Positions 2,707 through 18,827 of a DNA stretch of 18,827 bases are shown piece by piece (position 1 is the stretch's first letter; each line of letters starts with the position of its first letter). The notes beneath the pieces are model-generated. The model had not been told where the DNA came from, did not search any database, and saw only the letters and a list, made by a program, of their open reading frames with translations. The stretch is from Vulcanimicrobiota bacterium. Its GTDB lineage: Bacteria; Vulcanimicrobiota; Vulcanimicrobiia; Vulcanimicrobiales; Vulcanimicrobiaceae. Where the stretch lies: contig PLCF01000087.1 of NCBI GenBank assembly GCA_003135555.1, positions 6,630-25,456 of the forward strand, written 5' to 3'. The translations under genes were made by a program, and so were the position numbers.

Positions 2707-3887
2707 CCGCGATCGTCCCCTACGCTCCGGGCGACATCCGGCGCGGTCTGCGGCGCGGCGCGACGAGCGTCGTGCAATTCGCCTCCGGCGGCGTCGCCGC
2801 CGACGTTCGCGTCGAGCGCTTCGACCGGCGCAATCGCTGTTGCTGGTATGCGCTCAAGCTCGGCTCGAACGGGTCGGAGGTCACGGGACGGCTGGTCGGG
2901 ATGCGGCGCGGCGGCGCCGTCGACGAACTCGGATCGGTAGAGGTCGCGGCGGGCTCGCTCGGCAGCGCACGCTTCGCGGTCACCGCGCCGCGCGGCGGCG
3001 CGTACCAATCGATGTACCTGGAGATTCGCTCGGATGAGATGCTGCTGCGCGTTGAGGCGCCGCGCCCGCCGGTTCCGAGGCGGTTCGGTCCGTTCCGGGC
3101 GGCCGCGATGCTGCTCGCGATCGGGTTTGGCGTGACCTGCGCCGGTGCGGTGCCGCTCGCACTCGCCCGCGATTCCAAAGGGAGCGTGCCGGCACGACCG
3201 GTCGCGGCGGCGCCGCATCGCATCGTGCTGGTGAACGCGGCGGCGACGCCGGCGCGCGTGATCTCGTTCTCGGTCCGGCGCGACGCAACGCTCGGCGCCG
3301 AAACCGTCTTGGCGTCGTACCTCGCGGTCGGCGAGCGCGGCACGATCGAGCTGCTGGACCCGGCCGGCACGGTGATCGCCGCCGGTCCGTTCACCCGCGT
3401 CGGCACGATCCGGCTGCCCGTGCCGCTCCGGTACCGCGCGCTGCCGCTCACCGCGCAGCTCACCGTTCATCGCGGCGAAACCAAGGCCGTCTCGGGCGTC
3501 TGGGTAGCGCCCAACGCCGTGGCCGCACCCAGCCCGCTGCCGAATGCGACGCCGAGCACCGCGCCCGACGCACCGGCAGAAGGCATCACCCCGATCGACT
3601 CGGCGTCCTCGGCGACGGCGACCGGGATCGTCGCGGTCGAAGGCCACGCCGTCGCGGGGCAGCCGCTGCGTCTGCGCGTGGCGCCGCAGACCAGCGCGAT
3701 GCATCTCGAGCTGCAAGACGAAACCGGCACGACCCTCGCGGAAACGGAGATCGCGACCGGCGCGCGCCACGCGCTGTTGCCGCTCCCCGCTACGGCGGCG
3801 CGCGCGACCTATCTGCTGGCGCTGCACTACACCCACAACGGCGGCGAAGAAACCCTCATCCGCACCGTCATCGCCGCCCCGCACTAA
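2703..3887 (+). CDS. Hypothetical single-pass membrane protein with two extracytoplasmic beta-rich domains and a Pro/Ala/Thr linker
   Basis: ATG 2703 overlaps the regulator stop (ATGA). MTAIVPYAPG..., central hydrophobic helix AAAMLLAIGFGVTCAGAVPLALA, internal repeat IELLDPAGTVIA...RLPVP / LELQDETGTTLA...LLPLP. Codon usage fits the locus. Confidence 0.75.
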   Translation: MTAIVPYAPGDIRRGLRRGATSVVQFASGGVAADVRVERFDRRNRCCWYALKLGSNGSEVTGRLVGMRRGGAVDELGSVEVAAGSLGSARFAVTAPRGGAYQSMYLEIRSDEMLLRVEAPRPPVPRRFGPFRAAAMLLAIGFGVTCAGAVPLALARDSKGSVPARPVAAAPHRIVLVNAAATPARVISFSVRRDATLGAETVLASYLAVGERGTIELLDPAGTVIAAGPFTRVGTIRLPVPLRYRALPLTAQLTVHRGETKAVSGVWVAPNAVAAPSPLPNATPSTAPDAPAEGITPIDSASSATATGIVAVEGHAVAGQPLRLRVAPQTSAMHLELQDETGTTLAETEIATGARHALLPLPATAARATYLLALHYTHNGGEETLIRTVIAAPH

Positions 3888-3968
3888 TCGCTCGGCTCGC
3901 GGGCGCGGGAACCCGAGGTAGCGAACAGGATGCCGGCGACCCCGTCCCGCAGGGAGTCCGTATCGACA

Positions 3969-4364: not shown

Positions 4365-4378
4365 TGCTTGCGATGGTG

Positions 4379-4723
4379 TCAGACGAGTTCGAGCACGTCT
4401 CCCGGGAGCACGTCCACCTCGCGTAGCGCGCCGCCGCCGAGTTCGACGACGCCTTGTGCGCCTTTGCAACTGATGGCGATGCGGTTGGGGCGGACATTGT
4501 CGACGACGCGGATCACGTGGCCGTCGCGGTCGACGAAGATCACGTCGATGGGGACGCGCATGCCGATCGTGTGGATCGCGCGACAGGACGTGATCCAGAC
4601 GCCTTCGTCGGGGCGGAGCGTCGTGCGCGCGAGCAGGCCGACCGCTCGGTGCAGGAACGTGGAGAGCCTGTCGATTCTGGTCGCCACGATTTTTCCGGTA
4701 GTGGAGTTGCGCAGGAGCGGCAC
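4379..4723 (-). CDS. DUF192 family protein
   Basis: FLHRAVGLL...EGVWITSCRAIHTIGMRVPIDVIFVDRDGHV...VVEL..G matches the DUF192 pattern. GTG start 1 nt after the upstream peptidase stop. Confidence 0.88.
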   Translation of the reverse strand: MPLLRNSTTGKIVATRIDRLSTFLHRAVGLLARTTLRPDEGVWITSCRAIHTIGMRVPIDVIFVDRDGHVIRVVDNVRPNRIAISCKGAQGVVELGGGALREVDVLPGDVLELV

Positions 4724-4724
4724 G

Positions 4725-5342
4725 TCAGATCGTCCTCACGACGGCGAGCGATGCGGCAATCGAGGCCGCGAGGTAGGGTCCGAAAGCGATCGGGCGGCGT
4801 AACGCCGCGGTCCGTCGAGCGATGACGTAGGCCGCCAACGCGGCCAAGATGAACGCGAGCGTTGCACCGGCGGCGCCCAGCAGCGCGCCGCCCAGTGCCG
4901 CGAGCTTGACGTCGCCCCAGCCCATCCCGCGACCGCGCGAAAGCAGTGCGGCCGCCGCGAACGGGATCGCGACGAACGCCGCGCCCAGCGCCGGCGCCCA
5001 GTCGTGCGACGCCGCGCCGGCCCCCAGGACGAGCGCGAGCGGTCCGACGGTCAACACGTCGGGCAGCGCGCCGCAGAGCAGGTCGGCCGCCGCGCCGCCG
5101 GCGAGCGCGAGCGTGACCGCCAACAGCATGCCGAGATGAACCGGCGTTTCACCGCGCGCCGCGAGCGCGAGCCCGATGCACGCGCCGATCGCCGCGAAGG
5201 GCCAGCGAGCGAACGCGATCGGGTCCGGCCCGTCGTCGTACGGAACGCGGTCTGCGCACAGCCGCGCGCCGAGGAGCGCACCGCCCCACCCGGCGCAACC
5301 AAACAGCAATGCCGCGAGCGCCGCCGTGATGGAGAAGCTCAT
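4725..5342 (-). CDS. A24 family prepilin peptidase (PilD-like peptidase domain, no N-terminal Zn/methyltransferase domain)
   Basis: ATG 5342 overlaps the tadC stop. AAADLLCGALPDVLT, GMGWGDVKLAALGGALLG and PIAFGPYLAA; both catalytic Asp present; polytopic. Confidence 0.88.
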   Translation of the reverse strand: MSFSITAALAALLFGCAGWGGALLGARLCADRVPYDDGPDPIAFARWPFAAIGACIGLALAARGETPVHLGMLLAVTLALAGGAAADLLCGALPDVLTVGPLALVLGAGAASHDWAPALGAAFVAIPFAAAALLSRGRGMGWGDVKLAALGGALLGAAGATLAFILAALAAYVIARRTAALRRPIAFGPYLAASIAASLAVVRTI

Positions 5343-6193
5343 CGGTTCGTCACCAGCTTCGCGATGACGGGGCCGAAGATCATCAAGTACAGCGACGGGA
5401 TCATGAACAACGCCATCGGCAAGATCATCTTGACCGGGAGATGCGCGGCGCGCTCCTCGGCCCGGCTCCAGCGCCGGTCGCGAATCTCTCGGGCCAGCTC
5501 GCCGAGCACGTCGCTGAGGTTTGCGCCCAGCCGGTCGGCCTGCACGATCGCCGTCACCATCATCGTCGTCGACTCTTCGTTCACCCGGTCCGCCAGCGCG
5601 TTGAAGGCGTCGGCACGCGGACGGCCGAGCTGAATCTCCGACAGCATCGAGGAGATCTCTTCGCGCAACGCGCCCTGCGTCGCGTCGACCGCCTGCACGA
5701 GCGCGGAGTTGAGCGCCAGCCCCGCCTGTACGGTGCTGCTCAGGAAGTCGAGAAAGTCGGGCAGGCCGCGCTGGATGCTCTCTTTGCGCGCTTTCACCGC
5801 GCGGGAGAGCATGATGTTCGGTATGCGCCAGGCGACCAGCGCGGCGAACGCGCCGATCACGATCCCCAGCACGTTCCCGTCGAACAGGACCAGCGACATC
5901 AGGCAGGCGACCGCGCCGATACCCAGCGCGCCGATGCCGCGCAACGTCATCGCGATCGGGGTCACGCCGTACCAGCCCGCCTCGATGAGCCGCTGCTGGA
6001 CCCGCGAGTGCTGCTCCTTGCTGACGATCTGTTCGATGAGCGTGTAGCGCATGGCGACCGACTTCTCGTCGATCTTCTCGAGCTTTTTCAAGCGCGCCGC
6101 CATCGGGCTCTTCGCCGGGACGGTCGAGAACGCGATCAAGAACGCGGAGAAGGCGCCGCATCCGGCGACGATGTACGGCGAGATGTGGATCAC
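5339..6193 (-). CDS. tadC: Tad platform protein TadC (T2SS F family)
   Basis: GTG 6193 overlaps the tadB stop. LPDFLDFLSSTVQAGLALNSAL...LGRPRADAF...QADRLGANLSDVL...AEERAAHLPVKMILPMALFMIP. Confidence 0.93.
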   Translation of the reverse strand: MIHISPYIVAGCGAFSAFLIAFSTVPAKSPMAARLKKLEKIDEKSVAMRYTLIEQIVSKEQHSRVQQRLIEAGWYGVTPIAMTLRGIGALGIGAVACLMSLVLFDGNVLGIVIGAFAALVAWRIPNIMLSRAVKARKESIQRGLPDFLDFLSSTVQAGLALNSALVQAVDATQGALREEISSMLSEIQLGRPRADAFNALADRVNEESTTMMVTAIVQADRLGANLSDVLGELAREIRDRRWSRAEERAAHLPVKMILPMALFMIPSLYLMIFGPVIAKLVTNR

Positions 6194-7047
6194 GGGTCGA
6201 TCCTCGTGATTCGCGTCAGGACGAGAATCGCCAGCGCGTCGAGCGCGAGGGCGACCCCCAGAAAGATCTGCCCGATCGGCGTGCCGATCATCGGCCCGCG
6301 AAGATCGTCCTGCGAGAAGGCGAAGGCGCCGACTCCCAGCGGCAGCAGCCCCAACAGCCACGCGGTGGCGCGGCCCTGCGCGGTGACCGCGCGAACGCGG
6401 CGGCGCAACCGGCGGCGGTCGCGAATCGTTCCGGCCAGCCCCTCCAAGACCGTAGCGAGGTCGCCGCCCGTCTGCGCCTGGACGCGGATCACCCGCGCAA
6501 GCACCGAGGTCTCCGTCGTCGTCATGCGCAGCGCCAGCTGGTCGAACGCGTCGAGGATGCTCACGCCCAAGCTACTCAGCCCGACGACGCGCATCAGCTC
6601 GCTCTTGGCCGGCTCGCGGCTCTGTTCGCTGGTGAGCACCAGCGCCTGCCGGACTCCCAGGCCGACCCGCACGCCGCCCGCGAGCGTTCGCAGCGCGCCC
6701 TCGAGCTGCTCGGAAAACGCTCCAATCCGCTGCAGCCGACGCCGCTTGAGATACAGACGGCCGCCGACGCCGCCGACGACGGCGCAGGCGAGGAGCAGGA
6801 GCAGCGACATCAGCAACGCGGGATGCATCAGCACCAGCAACAGCACCCACAGCCCCACCGCGACGCCCGCCAGGACGAACACGAAATGCTGCGGCTCGAT
6901 GCGCATCCCGGCGGCTTCGAGGTCGACCGCGAAGCGCGACCCGAACGAGCCCAGGCGCGCGAATAGCGGCTCCGAGAACGACGCGAAGAGCAGGCCGATC
7001 GCGATCACGGCGCCGATCAGGATCGCGAACGGCGCTACCGCAGCCAT
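6190..7047 (-). CDS. tadB: Tad platform protein TadB (T2SS F family)
   Basis: ATG 7047 overlaps the ATPase 3' end. FSEQLEGALRTLAGGVRVG...QTGGDLATVLEGLAGTIRDR...AVTAQGRATAWLLGLLP. Confidence 0.93.
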   Translation of the reverse strand: MAAVAPFAILIGAVIAIGLLFASFSEPLFARLGSFGSRFAVDLEAAGMRIEPQHFVFVLAGVAVGLWVLLLVLMHPALLMSLLLLLACAVVGGVGGRLYLKRRRLQRIGAFSEQLEGALRTLAGGVRVGLGVRQALVLTSEQSREPAKSELMRVVGLSSLGVSILDAFDQLALRMTTTETSVLARVIRVQAQTGGDLATVLEGLAGTIRDRRRLRRRVRAVTAQGRATAWLLGLLPLGVGAFAFSQDDLRGPMIGTPIGQIFLGVALALDALAILVLTRITRIDP

Positions 7048-9146
7048 GCCTTCTCCGCGCGCTTCGCCGGCGACAGGTGGAAGGTGACCGGGTCGTATGG
7101 GACGCCGAGCTCTTCGAAGCGCGTGAGGCAGTTGGGCTGCACGCCACACGGCTCGAACTCGCCCAGCACCTTGCCCTGGCCGTCGACGCCGCGCTGTTTG
7201 TAGCGCACCAGCTCCTGCATGGTGACGATGTCGCCTTCCATCCCGACCAGCTCGCTGACACCAGTCACCCGGCGCGAGCCGTCGCGCAGGCGGGCGACCT
7301 GGACGATGAGGTCGACCGCGCCCGCGACCTGCTCGCGGATGGCGCGCACGGGGAGCTCGAAACCGGCCATCAGCACCATCGTCTCGACGCGCGAGAGCGC
7401 GTCGCGAGCCGAGTTTGCGTGAACGGTCGTGAGCGAGCCGTCATGGCCGGTGTTCATCGCTTGCAGCATATCGAGCGCCTCGCCGCCGCGGCACTCGCCG
7501 ACGACGATGCGGTCGGGCCGCATCCGCAGCGCGTTGCGCACCAGGTCGCGGATCGAGACGTTGCCTTTCCCTTCGAGGTTCGCCGGCCGCGACTCCAAGC
7601 GCACGACGTGCGGCTGGGCGAGCTTCAACTCCGCCGCGTCCTCGATGGTCACGATGCGGTCGCGCTTGGGGATGAAGGTCGAGAGCGCGTTGAGCAGCGT
7701 CGTCTTCCCGGCGCCGGTTCCGCCGCTCACGATGATGTTCAGCCGCGCTTCGACCGCGGCGCGAAGGAAGTCGAGCACGGGCGGGGTGATCGCGCCGACC
7801 TCGATGAGGTCGTCGACGCCGAAGCGACGCGTCCCGAAGCGCCGGATCGTGAGGGTCGGTCCGTCGATCGCGAGCGGTGAGATGATCGCGTTGACGCGCG
7901 ACCCGTCGGGGAGCCGTCCGTCGACCATCGGGCTGGACTCGTCGAGACGCCGTCCCAGCGGCGCGATGATGCGCTCGATCACCAGCCGAACCTGGCTGTC
8001 GTCGACGAACTGCTTCTCGGTGCGCTCGATCCCGCCGGCCCGCTCGACGTAGACGTTGGAGTGCCCATTCACCATGATCTCGGTGATGTCGGGCTCGTGC
8101 AGCAGGCTCTCGAGCGGGCCGAGACCCAGCGCTTCCTCGATGACTTCGTGCCGGATGCGCGACGCGTGTTCCGCCGAGGTGACGTCCTTGCGGGAGGCCA
8201 GGAAATCGTCGGCGATCGCGTCGACCTGCTGGCGCAGCTCGGCCAACTTCTGCGCGTCGGTGTGTGCGCGCGCCGCTGCCAGGAAGTCGATCTTCTTGAG
8301 CATCGTCGCGTGCAGCTCGGTCTTGAGCCGCTCGCTCGCCGGGGAGTCGCTGCCCGGGAAGGGCGTAGCGAAGATGGTCGACGACCCGGTCGACGTGCCC
8401 GGAAAGGGCTGCGGCGGCGCAACCGCGGCCTCGTTGCGCACGACTTGGCGACGGTCGCCGATCGGGTTCGCCATCGACGGGCGCAGCGCGGTCAGTTGTT
8501 CGGCCGGCGGCGCGCCGGTGAGCGCGTCGCCGAAGCGCGCGAACGCGCGTGCCCAGTTGCGGTCGCGGGGGGCAGGCAGCTCAGCGGCGACGGTGATCTT
8601 GAGCGACTCGGCGATCTCGCGGGTGCGCAGCTCGGCGGTGCCCCGCAAATCGAACAGCGTGAACGCGATCCGCGATTGCGGGATGCCGAAGCGCTCCAGC
8701 GCCGCCAGCATCCCTTTTGCCGAGCCGACGCCGAGCAGCGTCGGTTCGGTCATCACGACGATCTTCGCGGCGTTCATCACGAAGGGACGCACGGTCGCCG
8801 CGAACGGCTGCGGCGCATCGACGACGACGAGCGCGTTCTCGGGCAGCTTCGCGGCGAACTGTTCGACCCCGTCGGCGGTGACGACGAAGCCGTCCTCGTA
8901 CGAGCGGGCGAGCTCGACGATCGAAAGCGCGCCTTTCTTGCAGCTCGCCGGGGCGCCCGGGACGCGTCCCAAGTCGAGTTCGGCGGCGACGTCGTACCAG
9001 ACGGCGTGCGCGCGCCGCCCGGCCAAGTCGGCGTCGACGATGTAGCGCGGGCCGTGCCACGGCAATTGTTCGACGAGCCCAATCGCGGTGCTCGAGGCCC
9101 CGACGCCGCCCTTCGCGCCCACCACCAGGAAGACGCGCAGGCTCAT
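7035..9146 (-). CDS. cpaF: Fused CpaE/TadZ-like (MinD/ParA-type) domain plus CpaF/TadA pilus assembly ATPase
   Basis: N-terminal GAKGGVGASS (CpaE-type deviant Walker A), VDAD and VVVDAP. C-terminal GLGPLESLL..PDITEIMVNG, PMVDGRLPDGSRVN, SGGTGAGKTTLLNAL, TIEDAAEL, ALRMRPDRIVVGECRGGEA and AMNTGHDGSLTTVHANS. One continuous 703-aa ORF. Confidence 0.95.
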   Translation of the reverse strand: MSLRVFLVVGAKGGVGASSTAIGLVEQLPWHGPRYIVDADLAGRRAHAVWYDVAAELDLGRVPGAPASCKKGALSIVELARSYEDGFVVTADGVEQFAAKLPENALVVVDAPQPFAATVRPFVMNAAKIVVMTEPTLLGVGSAKGMLAALERFGIPQSRIAFTLFDLRGTAELRTREIAESLKITVAAELPAPRDRNWARAFARFGDALTGAPPAEQLTALRPSMANPIGDRRQVVRNEAAVAPPQPFPGTSTGSSTIFATPFPGSDSPASERLKTELHATMLKKIDFLAAARAHTDAQKLAELRQQVDAIADDFLASRKDVTSAEHASRIRHEVIEEALGLGPLESLLHEPDITEIMVNGHSNVYVERAGGIERTEKQFVDDSQVRLVIERIIAPLGRRLDESSPMVDGRLPDGSRVNAIISPLAIDGPTLTIRRFGTRRFGVDDLIEVGAITPPVLDFLRAAVEARLNIIVSGGTGAGKTTLLNALSTFIPKRDRIVTIEDAAELKLAQPHVVRLESRPANLEGKGNVSIRDLVRNALRMRPDRIVVGECRGGEALDMLQAMNTGHDGSLTTVHANSARDALSRVETMVLMAGFELPVRAIREQVAGAVDLIVQVARLRDGSRRVTGVSELVGMEGDIVTMQELVRYKQRGVDGQGKVLGEFEPCGVQPNCLTRFEELGVPYDPVTFHLSPAKRAEKAWLR

Positions 9147-10027
9147 GGACGTGCCGGAGCGGCTTCCGAGACGCGGTCGAGCTCGATGACGGTGACGCCG
9201 GAGGTTTGCGTTACCGTGCGCTTTGGCGCGGTGGCGACCAGCGCGGGCGTCGCCGCGATCGGCGCGGCCGCGGGAGTCGGCGGGCCGGGCGCCGGCGCAG
9301 CCGGGGCCGCCGGCTGGCGGTCGGCGACGCCGAGCTGCAGCGGTTCGGGCGCGAACGCGCGAACCGGTTCCTTAGGCGGACGCAGCGCAAGGCGCAGGGT
9401 CGTATTGAGGTCCGCCGCCGCAAGCAGGTTCACTTGTTGCGGCGTCAGCGCGAGCGTTACGGTCGTGAGGTTGTTTTGATTGTCGGGGCTGGGCGTCGCG
9501 CTGGTGGTCTCGACCGCGTTCCCCATTGCCAGGACGAGCGCGCCGCGCAGAATCGCCGATGCGCGCGGAACCTCCGAGCCCACTCGGGGCGGGACTGCGA
9601 TCACGTCGACGCGGTCGCCGGGCTGAATGAGGCCGGCGACTCCTTTGACGCGATCGATCGAGATGCTGACCGCGCGCATGCCGTAGGGAAGCCGCGCCGG
9701 CAACGCGTTCGCACCGGCTTCGCCGATCTTGGCGCCGGTGACGACGCTGCCGGCAGGGATCGTGATCAGCGAGTACTTGCCGGCGATCTGTTTGAGGTCG
9801 GTGACCGCGTCCCCGTCGACTTCGTTCGCCGGGCGCGTCGCTTCGGCCAGAAACGTATCGTTGAGCAGTGCCCGCGCCGGCACGTCACGCGACGCGACGT
9901 AGACGCGCTTCATCGGCACCGCGGCGTCCGAGGCGCGCAGCGAGCCCAGATAGTTGAGCAGCAGCACGCCGGTTCCCAGCGCCAGCAGCAGCCCGACGAT
10001 CAGCGGGATCCGGCGAGCATTTTTCAT
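9143..10027 (-). CDS. cpaB: Flp pilus assembly protein CpaB/RcpC
   Basis: ATG 10027 overlaps the cpaA stop. N-terminal TM, SAF-like VYVASRDVPARALL, LPYGMRAVSISIDRVKGVAGLIQPGDRVDVI, TVTLALTPQQ...LRLALR. Confidence 0.95.
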   Translation of the reverse strand: MKNARRIPLIVGLLLALGTGVLLLNYLGSLRASDAAVPMKRVYVASRDVPARALLNDTFLAEATRPANEVDGDAVTDLKQIAGKYSLITIPAGSVVTGAKIGEAGANALPARLPYGMRAVSISIDRVKGVAGLIQPGDRVDVIAVPPRVGSEVPRASAILRGALVLAMGNAVETTSATPSPDNQNNLTTVTLALTPQQVNLLAAADLNTTLRLALRPPKEPVRAFAPEPLQLGVADRQPAAPAAPAPGPPTPAAAPIAATPALVATAPKRTVTQTSGVTVIELDRVSEAAPARP

Positions 10028-10521
10028 ACGGGCAACCTCAAGGCGGGGACGACGGTGGAAGCGGCGTACGCGAAGCTGCCCGCGGCGATCGCGACACCGT
10101 ACGGTAACAGCATGGTCTCTTGGAGCGGCGCGCCGTGCGCAACCGCCGCCGTGCTGCGCACCAGCGCGACGAGGCGCCCGCGCGCCGCCGCGGTGACGAG
10201 CGCGAGCAAAGCGCCGGCGGCGAGGACGTAGAGCACCAGCACGACCGAACCGGGGAAACCTGCGAAGCCGCAACACGCGGCGATGAGCTTCACGTCGCCC
10301 CCGCCGAACCAGCCGGCGGAAAAGGCGATCGTCCCGGCGCCGAACGCCGCGACCATCATCCCAAGCGCGAGCAGCACGGCGGTTGGACCGGCGGGGAGCG
10401 CCGCGGCGAGCGCGGCGACCGCCGCGGCGCCGGTGAGGAGGTTGGGGATCCTGCGCGTCCGGACGTCGACCGCCGCAGCCGCGCAGGTGACGATCACCAG
10501 AACGATGGTGGCGATGGTCAC
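10024..10521 (-). CDS. cpaA: Flp prepilin peptidase CpaA/TadV (A24)
   Basis: GTG 10521 overlaps the flp2 stop. AAVDVRTRRIPNLLT, GWFGGGDVKLIAA and LPYGVAIAAG; directly follows the pilins. Confidence 0.93.
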   Translation of the reverse strand: MTIATIVLVIVTCAAAAVDVRTRRIPNLLTGAAAVAALAAALPAGPTAVLLALGMMVAAFGAGTIAFSAGWFGGGDVKLIAACCGFAGFPGSVVLVLYVLAAGALLALVTAAARGRLVALVRSTAAVAHGAPLQETMLLPYGVAIAAGSFAYAASTVVPALRLPV

Positions 10522-10673
10522 GGATAGCTCGATCCGACGTCCCAGAGCCGCGAGACGACCTGGGACCCGATGAACATGACGGCAGCCACGCACAGCACCG
10601 CGATGAAGCCGAGGATCAAGGCGTACTCGCCCAGCCCTTGACCCGCTTCGTCGCGGAGCGTGTGCGCGATCAT
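10518..10673 (-). CDS. flp: Flp family type IVc pilin (flp2)
   Basis: MIAHTLRDEAG|QGLGEYALILGFIAVLCVAAVMFIGSQVVSRLWDVGSSYP (51 aa) with the G|xxxxEY Flp motif. Start overlaps the upstream stop (ATGA). Confidence 0.92.
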   Translation of the reverse strand: MIAHTLRDEAGQGLGEYALILGFIAVLCVAAVMFIGSQVVSRLWDVGSSYP

Positions 10674-10789: not shown

Positions 10790-10801
10790 GGCCGAACCCT
10801 C

Positions 10802-10963
10802 TTAGATGCTGCTGCCGACGTTGCTCAGCAGCCCGGAGATCTGGCCTTTCAGGAACAGCACGGCGCCGATGCACAGAACCGCGATGAGACCCAGGACGAG
10901 ACCGTACTCGGCGAGGCCCTGGCCTGCGTCGTCGGCGAGGATGGAGCGAAGCGTGGTTTTCAT
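10802..10963 (-). CDS. flp: Flp family type IVc pilin (flp1, likely major pilin)
   Basis: Not in the ORF track. MKTTLRSILADDAG|QGLAEYGLVLGLIAVLCIGAVLFLKGQISGLLSNVGSSI (53 aa) with a strong AAGGAG RBS. Confidence 0.95.
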   Translation of the reverse strand: MKTTLRSILADDAGQGLAEYGLVLGLIAVLCIGAVLFLKGQISGLLSNVGSSI

Positions 10964-10984
10964 GTGAACTCCTTTTCGATTGTG

Positions 10985-11410
10985 CTAGTGCACGGATGCG
11001 GGGATGTCGTCCGGCGGGGCCGAGACGTTGGGGGCTCCGATGATGACCGTCGTACGGGCACCGTTGCCCGCCGGAACGGCATCGACGACGACGGTGAGGA
11101 TCGCGTTGCGGAAGAAACCCGGTGCGATCGGTAGCGTCGCGTCGTAGCGTCCGGTGGCGTCAGTCGAAATCGAGCGGCGGCTCAACAGCACCGTTGGAAG
11201 ATCCCGCGAGAACGTAGCGTAGAGCGAGGCTTCCAGCGGTCGAGCGGTGGGCGCGGAGCCGGTGATCTTCACCGCTTCCGTTCCCACCGCGCGCGTCGCG
11301 GTCAGGGTGATGCGCGTCGCTGCCGGGTCCGCCGTTTGCGCACCGGCCGGCGCGCAGAGCGCAGCCGTGGCGGCGAGGATTGCGAAGGACAACGGGTTGC
11401 GAAGTTGCAT
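10985..11410 (-). CDS. Hypothetical secreted beta-rich (Ig-like?) protein, first gene of the flp operon
   Basis: MQLRNPLSFAILAATAALCAPAGA|QT Sec signal peptide, then alternating beta-strand patterns (ITLTAT, VKITGS, YDATLPI, LTVVVD). 141 aa, ending 21 bp before flp1. Confidence 0.78.
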   Translation of the reverse strand: MQLRNPLSFAILAATAALCAPAGAQTADPAATRITLTATRAVGTEAVKITGSAPTARPLEASLYATFSRDLPTVLLSRRSISTDATGRYDATLPIAPGFFRNAILTVVVDAVPAGNGARTTVIIGAPNVSAPPDDIPASVH

Positions 11411-11473: not shown

Positions 11474-11491
11474 TGTCCACGCCTTGTCAAC
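11474..11491. promoter_or_regulatory. 11-bp-period direct repeat in the divergent flp/cpaC promoter region
   Basis: TGTCCAC (11474-11480) N4 TGTCAAC (11485-11491). It sits over the -35 position of an extended -10 TGgCATACT (11501-11509) for cpaC. Confidence 0.45.
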
Positions 11492-11549
11492 GCGGCGCTC
11501 TGGCATACTCGGTGCAACGACTCGCGCTTCCACTGCGAGAGGTATCGCT

Positions 11550-12992
11550 TTGCACCACCCACTTCGTTCGCTCCTGACTTCCCTGGCCGTGATCTGCGTC
11601 ACTGCGGCGCCGCCGGGCGCCCGCGCCGACACGATGTCCCCGATGATCTTGCGCACCGGGCAATCCATGGTCGTCGCGACGCCGCACCTGACGCGGGTCG
11701 CTGTCGGCGACGGCAAGATCGCCGGCGTGCTCGCGGTCGGGAACAGCGAGATCGTCATCAGCGGCCGCGCCGCCGGACGGACGACGCTGCTCGTCTGGAC
11801 GGGCTACGGACGCCGCTCGTACGACGTCACGGTGACCGAGCAAAGTCTCGAGAGCCTGCGCCAGATGCTACAGGGCTCGATCACCGAGCCCGGCATCCAC
11901 GTCGACGCGGTCGATCGTACGATCGTGGTCAACGGGAGCGTCGCGACGGGCGAGACGCTGGTGCACCTGGGGGAGGTCGTCTCACACTTCGAACCCGCCG
12001 CCGCTGCGGGCAAGTTCACGCTCGTCAACGCGGTCACCGTCGCAAAACCGTTGGGCCCGCTGCAAAGCGAGTTGGCCGGCGCGCCGGCAACGGCCGGAGT
12101 TCGCGTCGACCGCGACGTGAAGGGAAACTTGATCGTGAGCGGTCAGGTGCACGATCGCGTGACGGCCGAGCACGTGCTGCATCGCGTCCGCGCCCTGGCC
12201 GGTCCGTATCTCGCGATCGAGGGCAAAGTGGTCGATCGCCTCGAGACCGCGACGGTCAGCCAAGTCGACGTGAAGGTCTACGTGCTCGAGGTCGACGAGA
12301 CCGGACTCAAACAGCTCGGCGTCAACCTGCAGTCGGCGATCTTCCACCCCGACGGCACGTACACGCTCGCGGGGCCGCAGTTCCCCGTCGTCGAGAGCCC
12401 GCTCACGGGTAACGGCGCCAAGCCGGGACCGAGCATCGCCGGGTTCGGCCTCAACGTCGGTGCCTTCTTCCGGTCGATCACGCTGGCGCCGACGGTCAAC
12501 CTCGTGCTCCAAAGCGGCCACGCGCGGCTCCTCTCCTCGCCCGACCTGGTGACGATGCCCGGACGTCAAGCCGAGTTTCTGGTCGGCGGACAGATCCCGA
12601 TCCCGGTCGCGAGCGGACCGCAGCAGATCGCGATCCAGTACAAGGATTTCGGCGTGAAGCTGGTCGTCACGCCGACGATTCTCGGCGACGGCGGCGTCGA
12701 GACGCTCATCGCGCCCGAGATCTCGGATCTCGATTTCCAGGACGGCGTGTCGCTCAACGGCTTCACCGTTCCGGCGCTCAAGACGAGCCGGTTGTCGACC
12801 GACGTGGTCACCCAAGACGGCGAGTCGATCGTGATGGGCGGCCTGCTGCGCCGTCAAGAGCAACGCAACGTCGACAAGATCCCGCTGCTCGGCGATCTGC
12901 CGATTCTGGGCAAGCTGTTCCGCTCGACGCGTTACCAGAGTTCGCAGACCGACGTCGTGTTCGTAATGACGCCTACGATCCTGACGCGATGA
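11550..12992 (+). CDS. cpaC: Tad secretin CpaC/RcpA
   Basis: Likely TTG start 11550 with GAGAGG RBS. Signal peptide, pil_N domain (TRVAVGDGKIAGV...GRAAGRTTLLVW), BON-like middle region, secretin domain ARLLSSPDLVTMPGRQAEFLVGGQIPIP...YKDFGVKL..TP...KIPLLGDLPILGKLFRS...TDVVFVMTP. Confidence 0.95.
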   Translation: MHHPLRSLLTSLAVICVTAAPPGARADTMSPMILRTGQSMVVATPHLTRVAVGDGKIAGVLAVGNSEIVISGRAAGRTTLLVWTGYGRRSYDVTVTEQSLESLRQMLQGSITEPGIHVDAVDRTIVVNGSVATGETLVHLGEVVSHFEPAAAAGKFTLVNAVTVAKPLGPLQSELAGAPATAGVRVDRDVKGNLIVSGQVHDRVTAEHVLHRVRALAGPYLAIEGKVVDRLETATVSQVDVKVYVLEVDETGLKQLGVNLQSAIFHPDGTYTLAGPQFPVVESPLTGNGAKPGPSIAGFGLNVGAFFRSITLAPTVNLVLQSGHARLLSSPDLVTMPGRQAEFLVGGQIPIPVASGPQQIAIQYKDFGVKLVVTPTILGDGGVETLIAPEISDLDFQDGVSLNGFTVPALKTSRLSTDVVTQDGESIVMGGLLRRQEQRNVDKIPLLGDLPILGKLFRSTRYQSSQTDVVFVMTPTILTR

Positions 12993-14440
12993 CACCGGCT
13001 GCGCAGCGGGTCGCCTGCTTCGCCGCGTACCTGATCGCACCGCTGATCCTGGCCGCGATGATCGCGGTCAACGGCATGCGGGGCGAAACCTATCTGATGG
13101 GCGATTTTCGCGCTTTCTATTGCGCCGGCAACGCGATAGCGCAGGGCGCGAACCCGTACCTCACCGAGCCGCTGCGGACGTGCGAGGCGCACGCCGGGCC
13201 GCCCGCGGAACCGGCATTCTTGCGGCCCGTTGCGCTGCCGGCGCCGTTGCCGCCGTATGCGCTGGTGCTGTTCGTGCCCTTGTCGCTGCTGCCGTTCGGG
13301 GTCGCGGCGGCGTGCTATGGTGCGCTGCTGGTTGCGGCGATGATGGCGGCCGTGGCGCTGTTCGCGCGGGTGACCGGCGCCTCGAGCATCCTGCTCAACC
13401 TTGCCTTCGCACCGATCGCCGCGACGGTGACGTTGTACGTCGGACAGCCGGTCCCGTTGGTTTTCGCCGCGCTGGCGGCGGCGGCGCTGCTGGTGCGCAG
13501 CGGCCGGTGGGGCGCCGCGGCAGGTTGCGCGATGTTCGCGAGCATCGAGCCGCACGTCGCGCTCGCGGCGATCGCCGGGATGCTCGTCGCGTTCCCGCGC
13601 GTGCGGCTACCGCTGGTCGGGTTTGGCGCGGCTCTGGGCGTGGTCAGCGTTGCCGGGGTCGGTTGGGCGACGAGCCTGTCCTACGTGCGCGACGTCGTTC
13701 CGGCGCACGCGTTGGCAAACGTGTACGAATGGCAGTTCAGCCTGACCTCGATCCTCACGTCGGTGGGCGTCGCCGCGCAGCCCGCGATTCGGGCCGGGGA
13801 GCTGATGTTCGCGGCGATGGTCGTGGTGGGCGTCGTCGTCGCGCTGCGGCTGCGTTCGCTGACCGCGGATGCGGCGGTCGTGGTGATCGTGCCGCCGGCG
13901 TTCGCCTTGTTCGGCGGGGTGCACGTGCACTTCCAACAGCTGGCCGTCGCGTTCCCCGCCATCCTCTACGTGTGCGTGCGCTACCCGCGCGTCCGCACGC
14001 TCGCCGCGAGCGGACTGGCGTTCGCGATGATCCCCTGGAATGTGCTGGGCTCGAGCGTGCTCGCCGGCCTCGCGCCGCTGGTGGCGGGCACGTTCGGCGC
14101 GGCGACCATCGGGCGGCGGGCCGGTCTGGTGTTCGCGCTGTGCGCCGCGGGGATCGGCTTCTCGCTGCTCGTGCTAGGAGTATTGGGGCTCGGCCCGGCG
14201 CCGGTCCACTTCGTGGCGCAGAACTACGCGCCCAGTGCGCTGGCCGAAGTGAGCTGGGGCGACTTCTCGCGCGGCGTGCTGATGCGCCCGTCGCCGATGA
14301 TGCACTGGCTGCGCGTCCCCACCATGACCGGGCTCGCGTGCGGGCTGGCCGCGGTCGCCTGGGCGGCCCGGGGGAACGCGGTGCGGGCCGGCCGGGCACC
14401 GCTGCGCGCGCCGGTATCCGCTGCGGTGCCGGTGCGGTGA
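12989..14440 (+). CDS. GT87/DUF2029-like GT-C polytopic glycosyltransferase
   Basis: ATGA overlap with cpaC. After TM1: GDFRAFYCAGNAIAQGANPY...PLPPYALVLFVPLSLLPF, then GQ and IEPH (KP-equivalent) motifs and many TM helices. Confidence 0.8.
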   Translation: MTPAAQRVACFAAYLIAPLILAAMIAVNGMRGETYLMGDFRAFYCAGNAIAQGANPYLTEPLRTCEAHAGPPAEPAFLRPVALPAPLPPYALVLFVPLSLLPFGVAAACYGALLVAAMMAAVALFARVTGASSILLNLAFAPIAATVTLYVGQPVPLVFAALAAAALLVRSGRWGAAAGCAMFASIEPHVALAAIAGMLVAFPRVRLPLVGFGAALGVVSVAGVGWATSLSYVRDVVPAHALANVYEWQFSLTSILTSVGVAAQPAIRAGELMFAAMVVVGVVVALRLRSLTADAAVVVIVPPAFALFGGVHVHFQQLAVAFPAILYVCVRYPRVRTLAASGLAFAMIPWNVLGSSVLAGLAPLVAGTFGAATIGRRAGLVFALCAAGIGFSLLVLGVLGLGPAPVHFVAQNYAPSALAEVSWGDFSRGVLMRPSPMMHWLRVPTMTGLACGLAAVAWAARGNAVRAGRAPLRAPVSAAVPVR

Positions 14441-15867
14441 ACGTCGCGCCGATCCGCGCCCGCCCCGATCCCGCGCGGCTGTTGCCCTGGGTTTGCGCCG
14501 CCGCGATCGTCGCCTGGCAAACCGCCGTTGCACTGCAGTTTCCGCCGCGCGACGGCGATCTGCTGTGGCAGCGCTGGCTCGGCGAGCGCATCCTGCGCGA
14601 GCACGCGATCCCGCGAACGCTGGGACCCGAGACGTTCGCCGCCGAGGGCGTGCGCTGGACGCCGCACGAGTGGCTGTTCTCGACCGTCCTTGCGTGGAGC
14701 GGCGATCACGGTGCCGCCTGGCTCGTCCCGTTGATCTGCGCGCTCGCGGCCGGCGTCGCGTTGGCGACGGTCGCGCTGCGCTGCGCGCGGCGCGGCGTCC
14801 CGGGCACGACCGCGTCCGCCGCGGTGCTGCTGTGCGGGTTGGCGACGATTCAGTCGTTCGGGCCGCGCGCGCAAGTGCTCGGGTGGGCCGCCCTCGGCAG
14901 CGTGGTGCTGCTGCTGGAAACCGAAGGTCCGTGGGCCTGGGCTGCCGTGCCCGTCACGGTAATGTGGGCAAATCTGCACGCGAGCGCGTTTCTGGCGCCC
15001 GCAGTTGCCACGCTGTTCGCGCTTTCGGCGTTGCTGCGCGACCGCGCCTGGTCGCCGGCGGTTCGGCGCGCGGCGGCGCTGGCAGCGGCCTGCGGCGCCG
15101 CGACGCTCGCGACACCGCTCGGAACGGACCTCGTGCGGTACGCCGTGGAGCTCACGACGAGCCCGATCCGCCAGTCGATCAGCGAGTGGGGCCCGACGAG
15201 CATGAGCAGCGTCGCGTTTGCGGCCGGCGCGTTGCCGCTCGTCGTGTTGCTCGCAGCGTTCGGCGTCCGGGCGTCGCTGCGGGATCGCCTCCTGGCGGCC
15301 ACGTTCACCGTGCTGCTGTTTGCCGCGGTCCGGAACGTCGCCGTCTTCGCCATCGTCGCGGCACCGATCGCGCTCGCCGCGCTGCCCCGCATCGGCCGGT
15401 CCACCACCGCACCTCGCGGCGTGGCGTGGGCGACGCTCGCGCTCGTCGCGTGCTGCGGGGCGGCGATCTCGTTGCTCACCTGGCGCGGGGCGCCGGCGTT
15501 CGCCGGGGCGCTGCCGCAGGGGACGGCGCAAGCGCTGCTGGCCGGCGCGCGGACGCCGCCGCGCGTCTTCTGCGAAGACTTCGCCTGGTGCAGCCTGTTC
15601 CTGGGCCGGCCGGTGCGGTTCTTCATGGACGGGCGCTGCGATCCGTATCCGGGCCCGGTCTGGCAGGCGTACCGCGAGGTGATCGACGGCAACCGGCACT
15701 GGGCCGAGGTCCTGGACCGCGAGCGGATCGACGCGGTGCTGGTGCGCCGTGACGGCGCGCTCGAAAGCCTGCTCGCCGAGCGCCGCGGCGCGTGGCGGCG
15801 CATCGCCTCCGATCGCGTCTCCGCGCTGTACGTACGCGCACCGCTGCTGGCGCGGCTGCGGACGTGA
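14437..15867 (+). CDS. Polytopic membrane protein, probable GT-C-fold glycosyltransferase
   Basis: GTGA overlap with the upstream gene. DGDLLWQRWLGERIL...IP...G.RWTPHEWLF in the first loop, WANLHAS, ISEWGP, and a C-terminal soluble domain FFMDGRCDPY...W..VLDRERIDAVLV. The acidic DxD after TM1 is typical of GT-C. Confidence 0.72.
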   Translation: MNVAPIRARPDPARLLPWVCAAAIVAWQTAVALQFPPRDGDLLWQRWLGERILREHAIPRTLGPETFAAEGVRWTPHEWLFSTVLAWSGDHGAAWLVPLICALAAGVALATVALRCARRGVPGTTASAAVLLCGLATIQSFGPRAQVLGWAALGSVVLLLETEGPWAWAAVPVTVMWANLHASAFLAPAVATLFALSALLRDRAWSPAVRRAAALAAACGAATLATPLGTDLVRYAVELTTSPIRQSISEWGPTSMSSVAFAAGALPLVVLLAAFGVRASLRDRLLAATFTVLLFAAVRNVAVFAIVAAPIALAALPRIGRSTTAPRGVAWATLALVACCGAAISLLTWRGAPAFAGALPQGTAQALLAGARTPPRVFCEDFAWCSLFLGRPVRFFMDGRCDPYPGPVWQAYREVIDGNRHWAEVLDRERIDAVLVRRDGALESLLAERRGAWRRIASDRVSALYVRAPLLARLRT

Positions 15868-16988
15868 GCGCAGCGCGCGAAACGCTCTTGCCCCTCACCT
15901 CGCTGCGCTTCGTCGCGGCGCTGCTCGTGTTTTCATGGCACTGCGTGCCGACCCGGCGCATCTCCGCGATGTTCTCGTTCGGCTACATCGGCGTCGCGTT
16001 CTTCTTTCTGCTGTCCGGCTTCATCCTCACCTACACCTATCACCAGACGTTTCGCGACCGGCTGAGACCCGCCGCGATCCGCGCGTTCTATGCCGCGCGG
16101 TTCGCCCGGGTCTATCCGCTGCATCTCGCGACGATGCCGCTGATGCTCGCGGTGCTCGCGTACCTGGGGACGGACAGCTTGTGGAGCGGCGTCGACCCGC
16201 AGACGCGGCTCCGCGCCGTCGCGGCGCAGGCGCTGCTCGTGCAAAGCTGGATCGCGGCGGTTCCGATATCGTTCGGCGTCAACGGGCCGGCGTGGAGCAT
16301 CTCGGTCGAGGCGTTCTTCTACGCACTCTTTCCGTTCGTCGCGTTCGGGTTGCTGCGGGCGTTCCGCGGGTCGCCGCCGCACGTTGTGCTGCTGGGCGCG
16401 GGCGCCCTGTGGCTCGTCCAGGCGTTGCTGCTATGGCCGCAGCCCGCCGTCGTCGACGACTGGCGCTGGTATGTCTTTCCGCCGAGCCGGTTGATCGACT
16501 TCGTGGTCGGGATGCTGCTGGGGATCGCGTTCGTCGGAGCGCGGGAATCGCAGCGCCGGCGGCTGCACGCGACCAGCCTCGAAATGTTCGCGATCGCCGG
16601 CGTGTGCCTGGCGGTGTACGTTTCGCCGTTCGTGCCGCTGTCGATGCGCTTTTCAGCCTGGGTGATGCCGGCCTGGTGCGGCGTGATCTACGTGTTCGCG
16701 CAGCGGCGCGGCGCCATCTCACGGGTTCTGTCTTGGGCGCCGCTGGTACGCTTGGGCGAGATCAGCTTCGCGTTCTACCTGTGCCACCTCATGGTCGTCA
16801 AGCTCGTCGACGGCCGCGTCGGGTGGGATCACCCGCTTTCCCTGACGCTGGCATTCGGCGGCACGCTGGCGCTGAGCTTCGCACTCCACCACGGGGTCGA
16901 GCGGCCGCTGCGAACGCGCGTCCGCGCGCTGCTCGCACGGCCCGGACCACGCGCGATCGGCGTTCCCGCAGCTGCGGTGGGCCGGTAA
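15864..16988 (+). CDS. Acyltransferase family 3 (OafA-like O-acyltransferase), copy 1
   Basis: GTGA overlap. LTSLRFVAALLVFSWH, GVAFFFLLSGFIL, FYAARFARVYPLH, NGPAWSISVEAFFY and LGEISFAFYLCH. Confidence 0.92.
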   Translation: MSAARETLLPLTSLRFVAALLVFSWHCVPTRRISAMFSFGYIGVAFFFLLSGFILTYTYHQTFRDRLRPAAIRAFYAARFARVYPLHLATMPLMLAVLAYLGTDSLWSGVDPQTRLRAVAAQALLVQSWIAAVPISFGVNGPAWSISVEAFFYALFPFVAFGLLRAFRGSPPHVVLLGAGALWLVQALLLWPQPAVVDDWRWYVFPPSRLIDFVVGMLLGIAFVGARESQRRRLHATSLEMFAIAGVCLAVYVSPFVPLSMRFSAWVMPAWCGVIYVFAQRRGAISRVLSWAPLVRLGEISFAFYLCHLMVVKLVDGRVGWDHPLSLTLAFGGTLALSFALHHGVERPLRTRVRALLARPGPRAIGVPAAAVGR

Positions 16989-16992
16989 GACC

Positions 16993-18120
16993 GTGGCCGG
17001 CGAGCGGGTTCGGATCGAGCTCGATGCGCTCACCGCGCTGCGGTTCTTCGCAGCGCTGCTCGTGTTCGTCTACCACTGCGCGCCCACGGCCGCGTTTGCC
17101 ACCCAGTTTGCGCTCGGCCACAGCGGGGTCGGCTTTTTCTTCCTGCTCTCCGGTTTCATCTTGACGTACACCTATCATCCGGTGTTCGGCGGAGTGTTGG
17201 ATTGGCAGGCGGTTCGCGCGTTCTACGTCGCGCGCATCGCACGCATCTACCCGGTGCATCTCGTCGCGACGGGCTTCGCCGCGCTGGTGCTGTGGCGGTT
17301 CGGCGGCAACGTCTGGGACGCGTCCGGTGTGACGACGCGGGAAGTAGCCGCCGCCGCCCAACTGCTGCTGGTGCAATCCTGGATCCCCAACGAAAACGTC
17401 TATCTCGGGATCAATGCTCCGGCATGGAGCATCTCGACGGAGATGTTCTTCTACGCGGCGTTCCCGTTCGTCGTGCGCTCGTTGCTGCGCTCGTTCGGCC
17501 TGAGCACGCCGCGCGTGATCTGGGTCGCGGCGGCGATGCCCTGGGCGATCGAGGTCGCCGTCGCGCTCGTCCCGCATCCGGTCGCCGTCTGGACCGCGTA
17601 CGTGCTGCCGCCGGTGCGCTTGGCCGACTTCGTCGTCGGCATGCTGTTGGGGATTGCATTCGTGCGTTCCGCACCGGCTGCGCGGAGCGCCGCGCGCGCG
17701 ACGGGCCTGGAGGGACTGGCGCTGGCCGGCGTGGTCGCCGCGATCGCGGTCTCACCGTTTGCGCCGACTGCGCTGCGCTACTCGCTGTTCCTCATGCCGT
17801 TCTGGGCGGTGCTCATCGCGGTCTTCGTGCACCAGGCCGGCGCGCTTTCCGGAGTGCTGCGACGGCCCGCGTTCGTTGCGTTGGGTCGCGCGAGCTTCGC
17901 GTTCTACTTGATTCACTGGCCGGTGATCGCGATCGTCGGCGCGACCTTGGGCTGGACGCACCCCACCCTGGCGATCGCCGTCGCTTTCGCGCTGAGCATC
18001 GCCGGCAGCTTCGCGCTGTTCCATCTGGTCGAGCAGCCGATGCGCGCTCGCCTCCGCGCCGTGCTGGCACCGCGGGCGAGCGTGCCGCGCTACGCCGCGT
18101 TGGCGCCGCGCGAAGCATGA
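16993..18120 (+). CDS. Acyltransferase family 3 (OafA-like O-acyltransferase), copy 2
   Basis: LDALTALRFFAALLVFVYH, GVGFFFLLSGFIL, FYVARIARIYPVH, NAPAWSISTEMFFY and LGRASFAFYLIH. Confidence 0.92.
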   Translation: MAGERVRIELDALTALRFFAALLVFVYHCAPTAAFATQFALGHSGVGFFFLLSGFILTYTYHPVFGGVLDWQAVRAFYVARIARIYPVHLVATGFAALVLWRFGGNVWDASGVTTREVAAAAQLLLVQSWIPNENVYLGINAPAWSISTEMFFYAAFPFVVRSLLRSFGLSTPRVIWVAAAMPWAIEVAVALVPHPVAVWTAYVLPPVRLADFVVGMLLGIAFVRSAPAARSAARATGLEGLALAGVVAAIAVSPFAPTALRYSLFLMPFWAVLIAVFVHQAGALSGVLRRPAFVALGRASFAFYLIHWPVIAIVGATLGWTHPTLAIAVAFALSIAGSFALFHLVEQPMRARLRAVLAPRASVPRYAALAPREA

Positions 18121-18827
18121 ACGCCTCGATCGCCGCACCGGCCCACCCGCGTGTGCGCGCGCTGCCGCTGCGCACGTTCCTGTGGGTTTGGTCGGCGGCG
18201 GTCGCGCTGGTCATCGCCGCGTGCAGCGGCTGGTCGATCGGCCACGGCGGCGGCGACTGGCGGGTCTTCGTCGCTGCGGGGTCGCTCGCCGGGACCCCGG
18301 CGCTCCTCGATCCGCCCGAAGCTTGGCAGTCGTTCTTCTATCTGCCGGGCGCCGCATGGGCGCTCGTCCCGTTCGCACACCTTCCGCTCGCGCTCAGCTT
18401 CGCGCTCAACGGCGCGTTCATGCTGGGCTGCGCCGCGGCCGCCGGCGTCGTCGCGGCGCGGACCTATGCGTTATCGCGCACGACCGCCGTCGCGACGTTT
18501 GTGCTGTGGTCCCCGGTCGTGTACGCGGCCGCGATCATCGGCCAGAACGCCCCGCTGGGGCTGCTCCTCGCGCAGCTCTCGATCGCGGGCCTGGCGGCGC
18601 GCTCCGTCGCGCTGACCGCGATTCCGATCGGACTGCTGATGTACAAGCCCACCTACGCGCTGCCGATGATCGGGCTGCTGCTCGTCCGCGGACGGCGGCG
18701 CGAGCTGGCCGTCGTCGGCGCGTTCGCCGCGGTGTGGTACGGGATCAGCGCGGCAGCGACCGGCGGAGACTGGAGCTGGCCGAGCGCGTGGGCGCACCTG
18801 CTCGCGCGCTTCGCCGCCGGCGACTTC
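18117..18827 (+). CDS. GT87/DUF2029-like GT-C glycosyltransferase, 3' end beyond the window
   Basis: Not in the ORF track. ATG 18117 overlaps the upstream stop. MNASIAAP...GGGDWRVFVAAG...FFYLPGAAWALVPFAHLP...IIGQNAPL...LLMYKPTY shows the D-W/F, FxYxP, GQ and KP motifs. Open to the window end. Confidence 0.82.
   Translation, partial: MNASIAAPAHPRVRALPLRTFLWVWSAAVALVIAACSGWSIGHGGGDWRVFVAAGSLAGTPALLDPPEAWQSFFYLPGAAWALVPFAHLPLALSFALNGAFMLGCAAAAGVVAARTYALSRTTAVATFVLWSPVVYAAAIIGQNAPLGLLLAQLSIAGLAARSVALTAIPIGLLMYKPTYALPMIGLLLVRGRRRELAVVGAFAAVWYGISAAATGGDWSWPSAWAHLLARFAAGDF

Follow-up and report, generated by a model that had tools for sequence, protein, structure and literature searches.

GT-C and GT87 glycosyltransferase genes linked to tad loci in Vulcanimicrobiota: a candidate glycosylation module for Tad pilus proteins

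Tad pili are among the most widespread bacterial adhesive fibres, and we know of no enzyme for the glycosylation of their Flp subunits. Here we analyse a stretch of 18,827 nucleotides (the window), positions 6630-25456 of contig PLCF01000087.1 (C32) in the 3.57-Mb assembly (98 contigs, 68% GC) of an uncultured peat-soil bacterium whose close homologues and related contigs lead to Candidatus Elarobacter, phylum Eremiobacterota/Vulcanimicrobiota. The window carries two divergent gene sets, a Tad operon on the minus strand and, on the plus strand, the secretin gene cpaC followed by genes for five membrane enzymes: two GT87 glycosyltransferases (GTC1 and GTC3), a GT-C glycosyltransferase of no named family (GTC2) and two acyltransferase-3 proteins (AT3a and AT3b). 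We consider these enzymes as a candidate glycosylation module of the pilus.

Pilus-linked glycosylation by GT-C enzymes is already known; what would be new here, judging from the genes, is its occurrence with type IVc pili and in an unnamed enzyme family. Flp1 of A. actinomycetemcomitans has been reported to be glycosylated, according to the portion of the source consulted (PMC6182317). The nearest parallel by description is TfpW of Pseudomonas aeruginosa group IV, which the consulted account presents as a GT-C enzyme encoded beside pilA that modifies the type IVa pilin by D-arabinofuranosylation, passing a polyprenyl-phosphate sugar onto the pilin and having a periplasmic loop 1 and a large periplasmic C-terminal domain (10.1101/2020.04.19.049825). 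GTC2 is likewise encoded by a GT-C gene adjoining pilus genes. The TfpW system differs in its type IVa pilus, in its globular pilin and in its known donor genes (DprE1/DprE2 and others), which are absent here; the present locus has two GT87 enzymes and AT3 proteins as further members.

A second parallel is actinobacterial O-mannosylation, in which, as far as the consulted text goes, PMT starts and the GT87 enzyme PimE extends protein O-mannose, both from polyprenyl-phosphate mannose (PMC12757957). The division of labour proposed here would be the same, with a GT-C enzyme bearing a periplasmic part starting on Ser/Thr and GT87 enzymes extending. PMT differs in that it acts on many secreted proteins and is not found in pilus loci, and the organism studied here has a secretin and therefore an outer membrane. 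A literature search that left subscription journals largely uncovered returned no report joining Tad pili with GT-C enzymes or with a glycosylation module of this kind, and the consulted part of a 2026 review on Tad pili mentions no glycosylation enzyme. Within that coverage, the remark in the original prediction that it knew of no such module described for Tad pili holds.

The six genes of the block, all on the plus strand, are as follows.

11484..12992, plus strand: cpaC/rcpA-type Tad secretin (Secretin 141 bits, T2SS-T3SS_pil_N 44 bits; orthologues 68-77% identical adjoin tad operons)
12989..14440, plus strand: GTC1, PimE-like GT87 membrane glycosyltransferase, 483 amino acids (aa) (Pfam GT87 27.3 bits; PimE fold match)
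14437..15867, plus strand: GTC2, GT-C glycosyltransferase, 476 aa (fold match to STT3/PglB/PMT/ArnT; no named family)
15864..16988, plus strand: AT3a, acyltransferase-3 membrane O-acyltransferase, 374 aa (Acyl_transf_3 91.1 bits; no SGNH domain)
16993..18120, plus strand: AT3b, paralogue of AT3a (51% identical), 375 aa (Acyl_transf_3 95.9 bits)
18117..18827, plus strand: GTC3, second GT87-like glycosyltransferase, partial (Pfam GT87 41.7 bits; orthologues about 388 aa)

The gene order and the close junctions were as originally described: ATGA overlaps at 12989 and 18117, GTGA overlaps at 14437 and 15864, and a 4-nt gap between the AT3a stop (16988) and the AT3b GTG start (16993). Third-position GC was 0.86-0.92 in all six frames, matching the other tad genes of the window. 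All five junctions are bridged, with 2 to 17 differing letters, by contigs of other public runs (spanning 12618-13490, 13411-15582, 15432-16295, 16181-17141 and 18022-18814); since contigs of other studies bridge the cpaC-GTC1 joint, this direct joint is not an assembly artefact of the genome in hand. For AT3a, the start at 15864 was preferred over a GTG at 15792, and orthologue matches start at residue 1-6. The TTG start of cpaC is uncertain; its signal peptide lies within residues 1-50. An NN at the end of the window cuts into GTC3 and only 237 nt of contig follow, so that GTC3 is incomplete and nothing downstream is readable in the assembly. A consensus scan found no sigma-70-like promoter site, and a terminator scan found two terminator-like sites, both within coding sequence, where shuffles expect 4.8. 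We infer co-transcription of the six genes from the overlaps alone.

Both GT87 candidates fall within the Pfam family (PF09594, cut-off 25 bits), GTC1 only just above the cut-off and GTC3 more clearly. The AlphaFold2 (AF2) model of GTC1, with a predicted local distance difference test (pLDDT) score of 90.6, matched PimE (9dm5) at Z 25.8 and a root-mean-square deviation of 3.5 with 365/383 residues aligned; the next match was ALG3 (Z 20.0), and Foldseek gave PimE at E 3e-5. D39 of GTC1, invariant in 27 sequences, lies at the start of the helix 38-51 that follows transmembrane helix 1 (TM1). The catalytic D58 of PimE, at the tip of the first juxtamembrane helix, and the catalytic Asp of ALG6, ArnT and PglB sit just after the first transmembrane (TM) helix, according to the section of the PimE study consulted (PMC12041525). 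D39 of GTC1 and the D39-G40-D41 motif of GTC2 appear to be placed in the same way, as judged by position after TM1 and not by residue superposition. Profile alignment of GTC1 with GTC2 by hhalign gave a probability of 1.6, and no NCBIfam model scored above its cut-off for the five enzymes of the block.

GTC2 has about thirteen TM helices and a periplasmic C-terminal domain (residues 352-476). Sequence searches returned no Pfam family at E up to 0.01, no NCBIfam match and no PDB match by profile at E up to 10. Its AF2 model (pLDDT 91.5) was matched in a fold search to STT3 (Z 19.8, 443 residues aligned), PglB (17.4), Pmt1/2 (17.1), Pmt4 (16.9) and AglB, ArnT and DPY19 (16.1), and Foldseek gave STT3 at E 9e-7. 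Alignment to Pmt1/2 and Pmt4 covers the membrane part only (model residues 7-354), while STT3, PglB and AglB are the best structural matches over the membrane part together with the C-terminal domain; residues 357-468 matched the soluble domains of AglB, PglB and STT3 at Z 8.2, 7.0 and 6.8, respectively, over about 105 residues. GTC2 thereby combines a GT-C membrane fold with a mixed alpha/beta periplasmic domain, as in oligosaccharyltransferases (OSTs). It is only about two thirds the length of STT3, PglB or AglB, and membership of the STT3 family was ruled out by the lack of an STT3 Pfam match and of a WWDxG-like motif, which we take to be the motif of the STT3/PglB/AglB C-terminal domain (0/26 GTC2 family members). 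Assignment to PMT (GT39) by sequence was likewise rejected, there being no PMT/PMT_2 Pfam match and no MIR domain. Across 26 sequences, down to 37% identity, D39-G40-D41, P76/E78/W79, H181, E250-W251 and several residues of the periplasmic domain are invariant. The families originally named for the block are thus supported by structure for GTC1 (PimE-like) and GTC2 (a GT-C enzyme of the STT3/PglB/PMT/ArnT type, Z 19.8 to 16.1), and by Pfam for the AT3 and GT87 proteins.

The family around GTC2 is large: at E up to 0.001 its profile collected 19,869 representative clusters, and with the limit tightened to 1e-30 it still collected 1,438. All named homologues carry the annotation 'hypothetical protein', and matches in a protein atlas are unnamed clusters only; ten mid-range clusters were checked, and the sole organism name among them was an Actinomycetota metagenome-assembled genome.

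Linkage of GTC2 and GT87 genes with tad loci takes two layouts in the phylum and recurs in a distant family branch. When one genome per species was scanned, 183 GTC2 relatives emerged, from which 76 loci were kept; at least one core tad gene was present in 69 of these, and the seven without are four contigs of 2-9 kb and three longer loci taken up below. Twenty-three loci share the layout of the window, with cpaC, then in 15 a tadG-like and a tadE-like gene, then GTC1 and GTC2 and, variably, AT3 and GTC3. The secretin-headed arrangement foreseen for the window is real there and in window-type loci generally extends to seven, in which cpaC directly adjoins GTC1; it is a local feature, as the tadG-like and tadE-like genes intervene in 15 of the 22 window-type loci that hold cpaC. 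In the second layout (44 loci), the order is flp, cpaA, cpaB, cpaEF, tadB, tadC, an A24-like peptidase gene, often a 25-29% GTC2-like gene, and GTC2, the last lying on the same strand within 3 kb of the tadC/A24-like genes in 41/44. A convergent GT87-like gene is present in 28/44 and a STAND/BTAD regulator gene in 33/44 of these loci, and GTC2 and GT87 genes together recur in both layouts.

The same pairing is seen within the genome, across the phylum and beyond this clade. Three paralogous tad loci occur in the genome (on C32, C60 and C90), and on C60 a GTC2 paralogue (39% identical) comes immediately after the A24-like gene, on the strand of the operon; a 469-aa membrane protein on C90 gave an hhalign probability of 0.4 against the GTC2 profile. 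Among 201 genomes of the phylum, GTC2 matches were found in 97 and RcpC in 99. Strong GTC2 matches (E up to 1e-100; n = 72) lay 3-9.5 kb from an RcpC gene in 54 cases, while 12 were on a contig without RcpC, many near the contig end, with RcpC on other contigs of the same genome, and two were in genomes where no RcpC was found. A metagenome scan with a family branch 27-32% identical to GTC2 yielded 78 loci; thirteen of these have 5 kb or more of upstream flank, and 10 of the 13 show a CpaF-like gene on the opposite strand, seven of them with tadB and tadC as well. In 12 loci of at least 7 kb with a shorter upstream flank, no CpaF-like gene was found (0/12), as expected from the spacing. The link to the Tad pilus put forward in the original prediction is thus upheld.

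Tad loci without a strong GTC2 match carry other enzymes. Among 20 such loci, GT87-like genes were present in 10, and Pfam searches on the unassigned open reading frames (ORFs) of 10 of the 20 returned DUF2142, AT3, GT2 and an MBOAT fusion. DUF2142 proteins (about 780 aa) take the position of GTC2 in GTC2-less Tad loci. In four loci of another genus (L104, L105, L109 and L118, at about 8830-11310), a 780-820-aa membrane protein stands right after the A24-like gene, and two of the four match DUF2142.

The AT3 proteins had been proposed as part of the module, and here the survey did not agree. Both score far above the Pfam cut-off (PF01757, 31 bits) and carry in the first helix an R-x10-H stretch, from residue 15 in AT3a and residue 17 in AT3b, which is presumably the AT3 motif. 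In these respects they resemble OafA and OafB, which are AT3 O-acyltransferases, and they differ from them in lacking a fused SGNH domain and in not being a conserved part of a module. In the 23 window-type loci, AT3 genes share the strand of cpaC in 10, occupy the other strand in nine and are absent from four; in the second layout they were found in 0/44, and the 34 kb covered around the block in a relative assembled as one contig (G020) contained no AT3 gene. The AT3 genes are accessory and not conserved parts of the module.

Relatives were also read beyond the point where the window breaks off. There the block ends after GTC3 or AT3 and is followed by genes for a DeoC-type aldolase, a UbiA-family protein, dehydrogenases and a two-component system; in the genome studied here, the UbiA and DeoC genes are on contig C93. 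A GT2 polyprenyl-phosphate sugar synthase or flippase, which the original prediction had suggested looking for downstream, was not found among the ORFs scanned in three relatives whose contigs run past the block. The UbiA and DeoC genes were considered as donor-synthesis genes and rejected, as they occur only in 13 and 17 window-type loci; their confinement to this layout marks them as plain synteny. In G020 (locus L013, contig C1), GTC1-like and GTC2-like fragments lie between intact copies at 15084-17537 and are probable traces of duplication and decay within the block.

The predicted acceptor is the Flp pilin, and two Flp prepilins are encoded on the minus strand of the window.

10802..10963, minus strand: flp1, Flp prepilin, 53 aa (Flp_Fap match under the Pfam cut-off; G/xxxxEY site; hydrophobic helix; 17-orthologue alignment)
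10518..10673, minus strand: flp2, second Flp prepilin, 51 aa (Flp_Fap match under the Pfam cut-off; tail ...WDVGSSYP)

The tails of window-type Flp pilins are strongly conserved, one type reading ...LSNVGSSI with S47 and S52 invariant in 17 sequences and the other ending in ...YP. N-glycosylation was considered and rejected. N-x-S/T sites occur in 4/40 window-type, 26/55 second-layout and 3/28 GTC2-less Flp pilins, with means of 0.10, 0.67 and 0.11 against 0.25, 0.53 and 0.30 in shuffled tails, so that the sites are rare in window-type pilins and not enriched over shuffles in any group. The same holds for the tadG-like protein, whose window copy has nine sites against 4.6 expected while 31 relatives have 0-14 with no consistent excess.

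Prediction of a complex between GTC2 and Flp1 gave a score of 0.77, and the best of three controls scored 0.00. This mark was attained by 116/157 solved complexes and by 2/215 mismatched pairs, counts that apply here only roughly because the GTC2-Flp1 prediction was made with our own alignments. The GTC2-Flp1 runs agree in at least 77% of contacts, with a partner pLDDT of at least 64. The Flp helix (residues 16-44) is predicted to lie in a groove formed by GTC2 residues 16-31, 122-139, 259-263 and 325-351, parallel to the first and last helices of GTC2, with contact pairs 16-23, 20-27 and 24-30 along TM1. As the helix runs parallel to TM1, the topology would place the exit of the pilin tail next to the periplasmic domain and the D39-G40-D41 loop of GTC2. 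The prediction supports binding of Flp1 by GTC2.

Taken together, we put at about even chances the reading that the block works as a periplasmic line dedicated to the glycosylation of Tad pilus proteins, in which the Flp pilin is the predicted acceptor. Because the pairing of GTC2 with tad genes has been kept across the phylum, the enzymes likely add sugars to pilus subunits. In the proposed mechanism, polyprenyl-phosphate sugars would be made elsewhere in the genome, there being no synthase in the locus, and flipped to the periplasmic face. GTC2 would take the membrane-embedded Flp sideways, between its first helix, helix 122-139 and its last helix, leaving the short C-terminal Flp tail with its invariant S47 and S52 exposed near the periplasmic domain and the D39-G40-D41 loop, and would attach the first sugar at this tail, as PMT, TfpW and oligosaccharyltransferases do on their substrates. 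The two GT87 enzymes, GTC1 and GTC3, would then extend the chain as PimE does on mycobacterial protein O-mannose. In lineages that carry them, the AT3 proteins may O-acylate the glycan as optional decorators, and the minor pilins (tadE-like and tadG-like) may be alternative or additional acceptors.

Several observations weigh against this reading. AT3 proteins usually act on glycans. Three long loci of 16-21 kb (L084, L090 and L094) truly lack tad genes, four of the 72 strong GTC2 matches are far from RcpC on the same long contig, and some families of the phylum that yielded no RcpC still show weak GTC2-like matches. The 19,869 clusters of the GTC2 family are too many for all to be pilus-bound. 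In the predicted complex, neither the pilin tail nor the DGD loop is among the confident contacts, and the controls were unrelated proteins and not membrane helices or other GT-C enzymes, so that docking of a greasy helix to any groove is possible. None of the public runs containing the stretch is an RNA run. The consulted account of the Caulobacter Tad pilus describes no extra density (PMC10710030), which indicates that glycosylation is not general to Tad pili.

The main alternative, less likely than pilin glycosylation but of real weight, is that the enzymes make or modify a non-protein glycan of the cell surface, such as a glycolipid, a lipoglycan or an adhesive polysaccharide, that is made together with the pilus in the manner of a holdfast; the genetic linkage would then reflect co-regulation and not modification of the pilin. 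GTC1 is closest to PimE, and the classical, defined acceptor of PimE is the glycolipid Ac1PIM4, as given in the part of the study consulted (PMC12041525). The AT3, MBOAT and GT2 genes that accompany tad loci vary in combination, as is typical of surface-polysaccharide loci, and the STAND/BTAD regulator beside 33/44 second-layout loci could tie separate functions together. A strong GTC2 match lies within 12 kb of only 53/120 RcpC matches, which makes the module an accessory of the pilus. Set against this, the glycosyltransferase genes are embedded among pilus genes, after tadG and tadE in one layout or, on the same strand, after tadC and the A24-like gene in the other, and the loci examined have no polymerase, flippase, export or initiating transferase genes. 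The complex prediction, with the caveats on its controls given above, also places Flp in GTC2.

A broader version of pilin glycosylation, which we regard as improbable, would make GTC2 the representative of a huge family of miniature OST-like enzymes that ancestrally glycosylated Flp pilins in the inner membrane. Tad pili are thought to have descended from archaeal pili, and AglB N-glycosylates archaeal type IV pilins and archaellins. If this version were true, Tad pili would carry an OST-type enzyme of their own, and in soil bacteria many of these pili would be fibres of glycoprotein.

It is very unlikely that GTC2 serves as an inner-membrane dock or chaperone for Flp, keeping the shape of a GT-C enzyme without a transferase role, with the GT87 and AT3 genes as unrelated passengers. 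In favour of a dock, the predicted interface is purely helix-helix within the membrane and GTC2 comes after tadB and tadC, the platform genes, in 41/44 second-layout loci; the invariant acidic motif, E250-W251 and periplasmic residues are instead active-site-like, GT87 genes accompany GTC2 in both layouts, and about half of Tad loci lack GTC2. Least probable of all is inherited synteny without shared function, since, although most loci come from one phylum and are kin, not independent, and the downstream UbiA and DeoC genes are an example of such synteny, the link to tad genes survives a change of position and strand between layouts and also holds in paralogous tad loci of one genome and in a family branch only 27-32% identical.

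The remainder of the window is largely taken up by the minus-strand Tad operon. Together with the Flp pilins and the secretin described above, an A24 peptidase, RcpC/CpaB, TadA/CpaF, TadB and TadC are all present, identifying a Tad/Flp (type IVc) locus.

10024..10521, minus strand: cpaA/tadV prepilin peptidase (Pfam Peptidase_A24 52.2 bits)
9143..10027, minus strand: cpaB/rcpC (Pfam RcpC 91.2 bits and SAF)
7035..9146, minus strand: fused cpaE-like N-terminal part and cpaF/tadA ATPase, 703 aa (T2SSE 220.5 bits, residues 340-619; weak ParA match 5-44)
6190..7149, minus strand: tadB (Pfam T2SSF 60.8 bits)
5339..6361, minus strand: tadC (Pfam T2SSF 76.4 bits)
4725..5342, minus strand: second A24-like peptidase gene, after tadC (Pfam Peptidase_A24 27.2 bits)
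4379..4723, minus strand: DUF192 gene
3..944, minus strand: tadG-like minor-pilin gene, cut by the scaffold gap (Pfam Tad, TadE/G-like, 36.2 bits)

Scaffold gaps (N) bound the window on both sides (window 1-2 and 18827); as the left gap cuts the tadG-like gene, its position relative to cpaC in this genome is uncertain. The cpaE-like/cpaF fusion is conserved in the group, since relatives align over residues 1-703. Each of the three tad loci in this genome, like most loci across the phylum, has a second A24-like membrane protein encoded after tadC; in the window and on contig C90 a DUF192 gene comes next.

Four further genes or regions were noted in the window. A STAND-type NTPase with a BTAD domain (512 aa, 1168..2706, plus strand) adjoins the tad locus; as its homologues flank 33/44 second-layout loci, it is a candidate pilus regulator. 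Just upstream of flp1, a secreted protein of 141 aa (10985..11410, minus strand) shows good codon bias and has counterparts of 148-165 aa in relatives, with no Pfam family. An Ala/Pro-rich protein of 419 aa (2628..3887, plus strand) also has good codon bias and no Pfam family. At 3889-4389, 499 bases are swapped for 36 other letters in a contig of two peat runs (depths 122.6 and 71.5); the replacement deletes most of a 144-aa ORF (3930-4364, no Pfam family) and looks like a strain variant.

The occurrence of a conserved GT-C and GT87 module in tad loci offers candidate enzymes for the glycosylation of Flp subunits and, in the Ser-bearing C-terminal Flp tail, a candidate site. It may also open a first way into the function of a GT-C family that numbers about 20,000 representative clusters and for which there is no Pfam or NCBIfam model.

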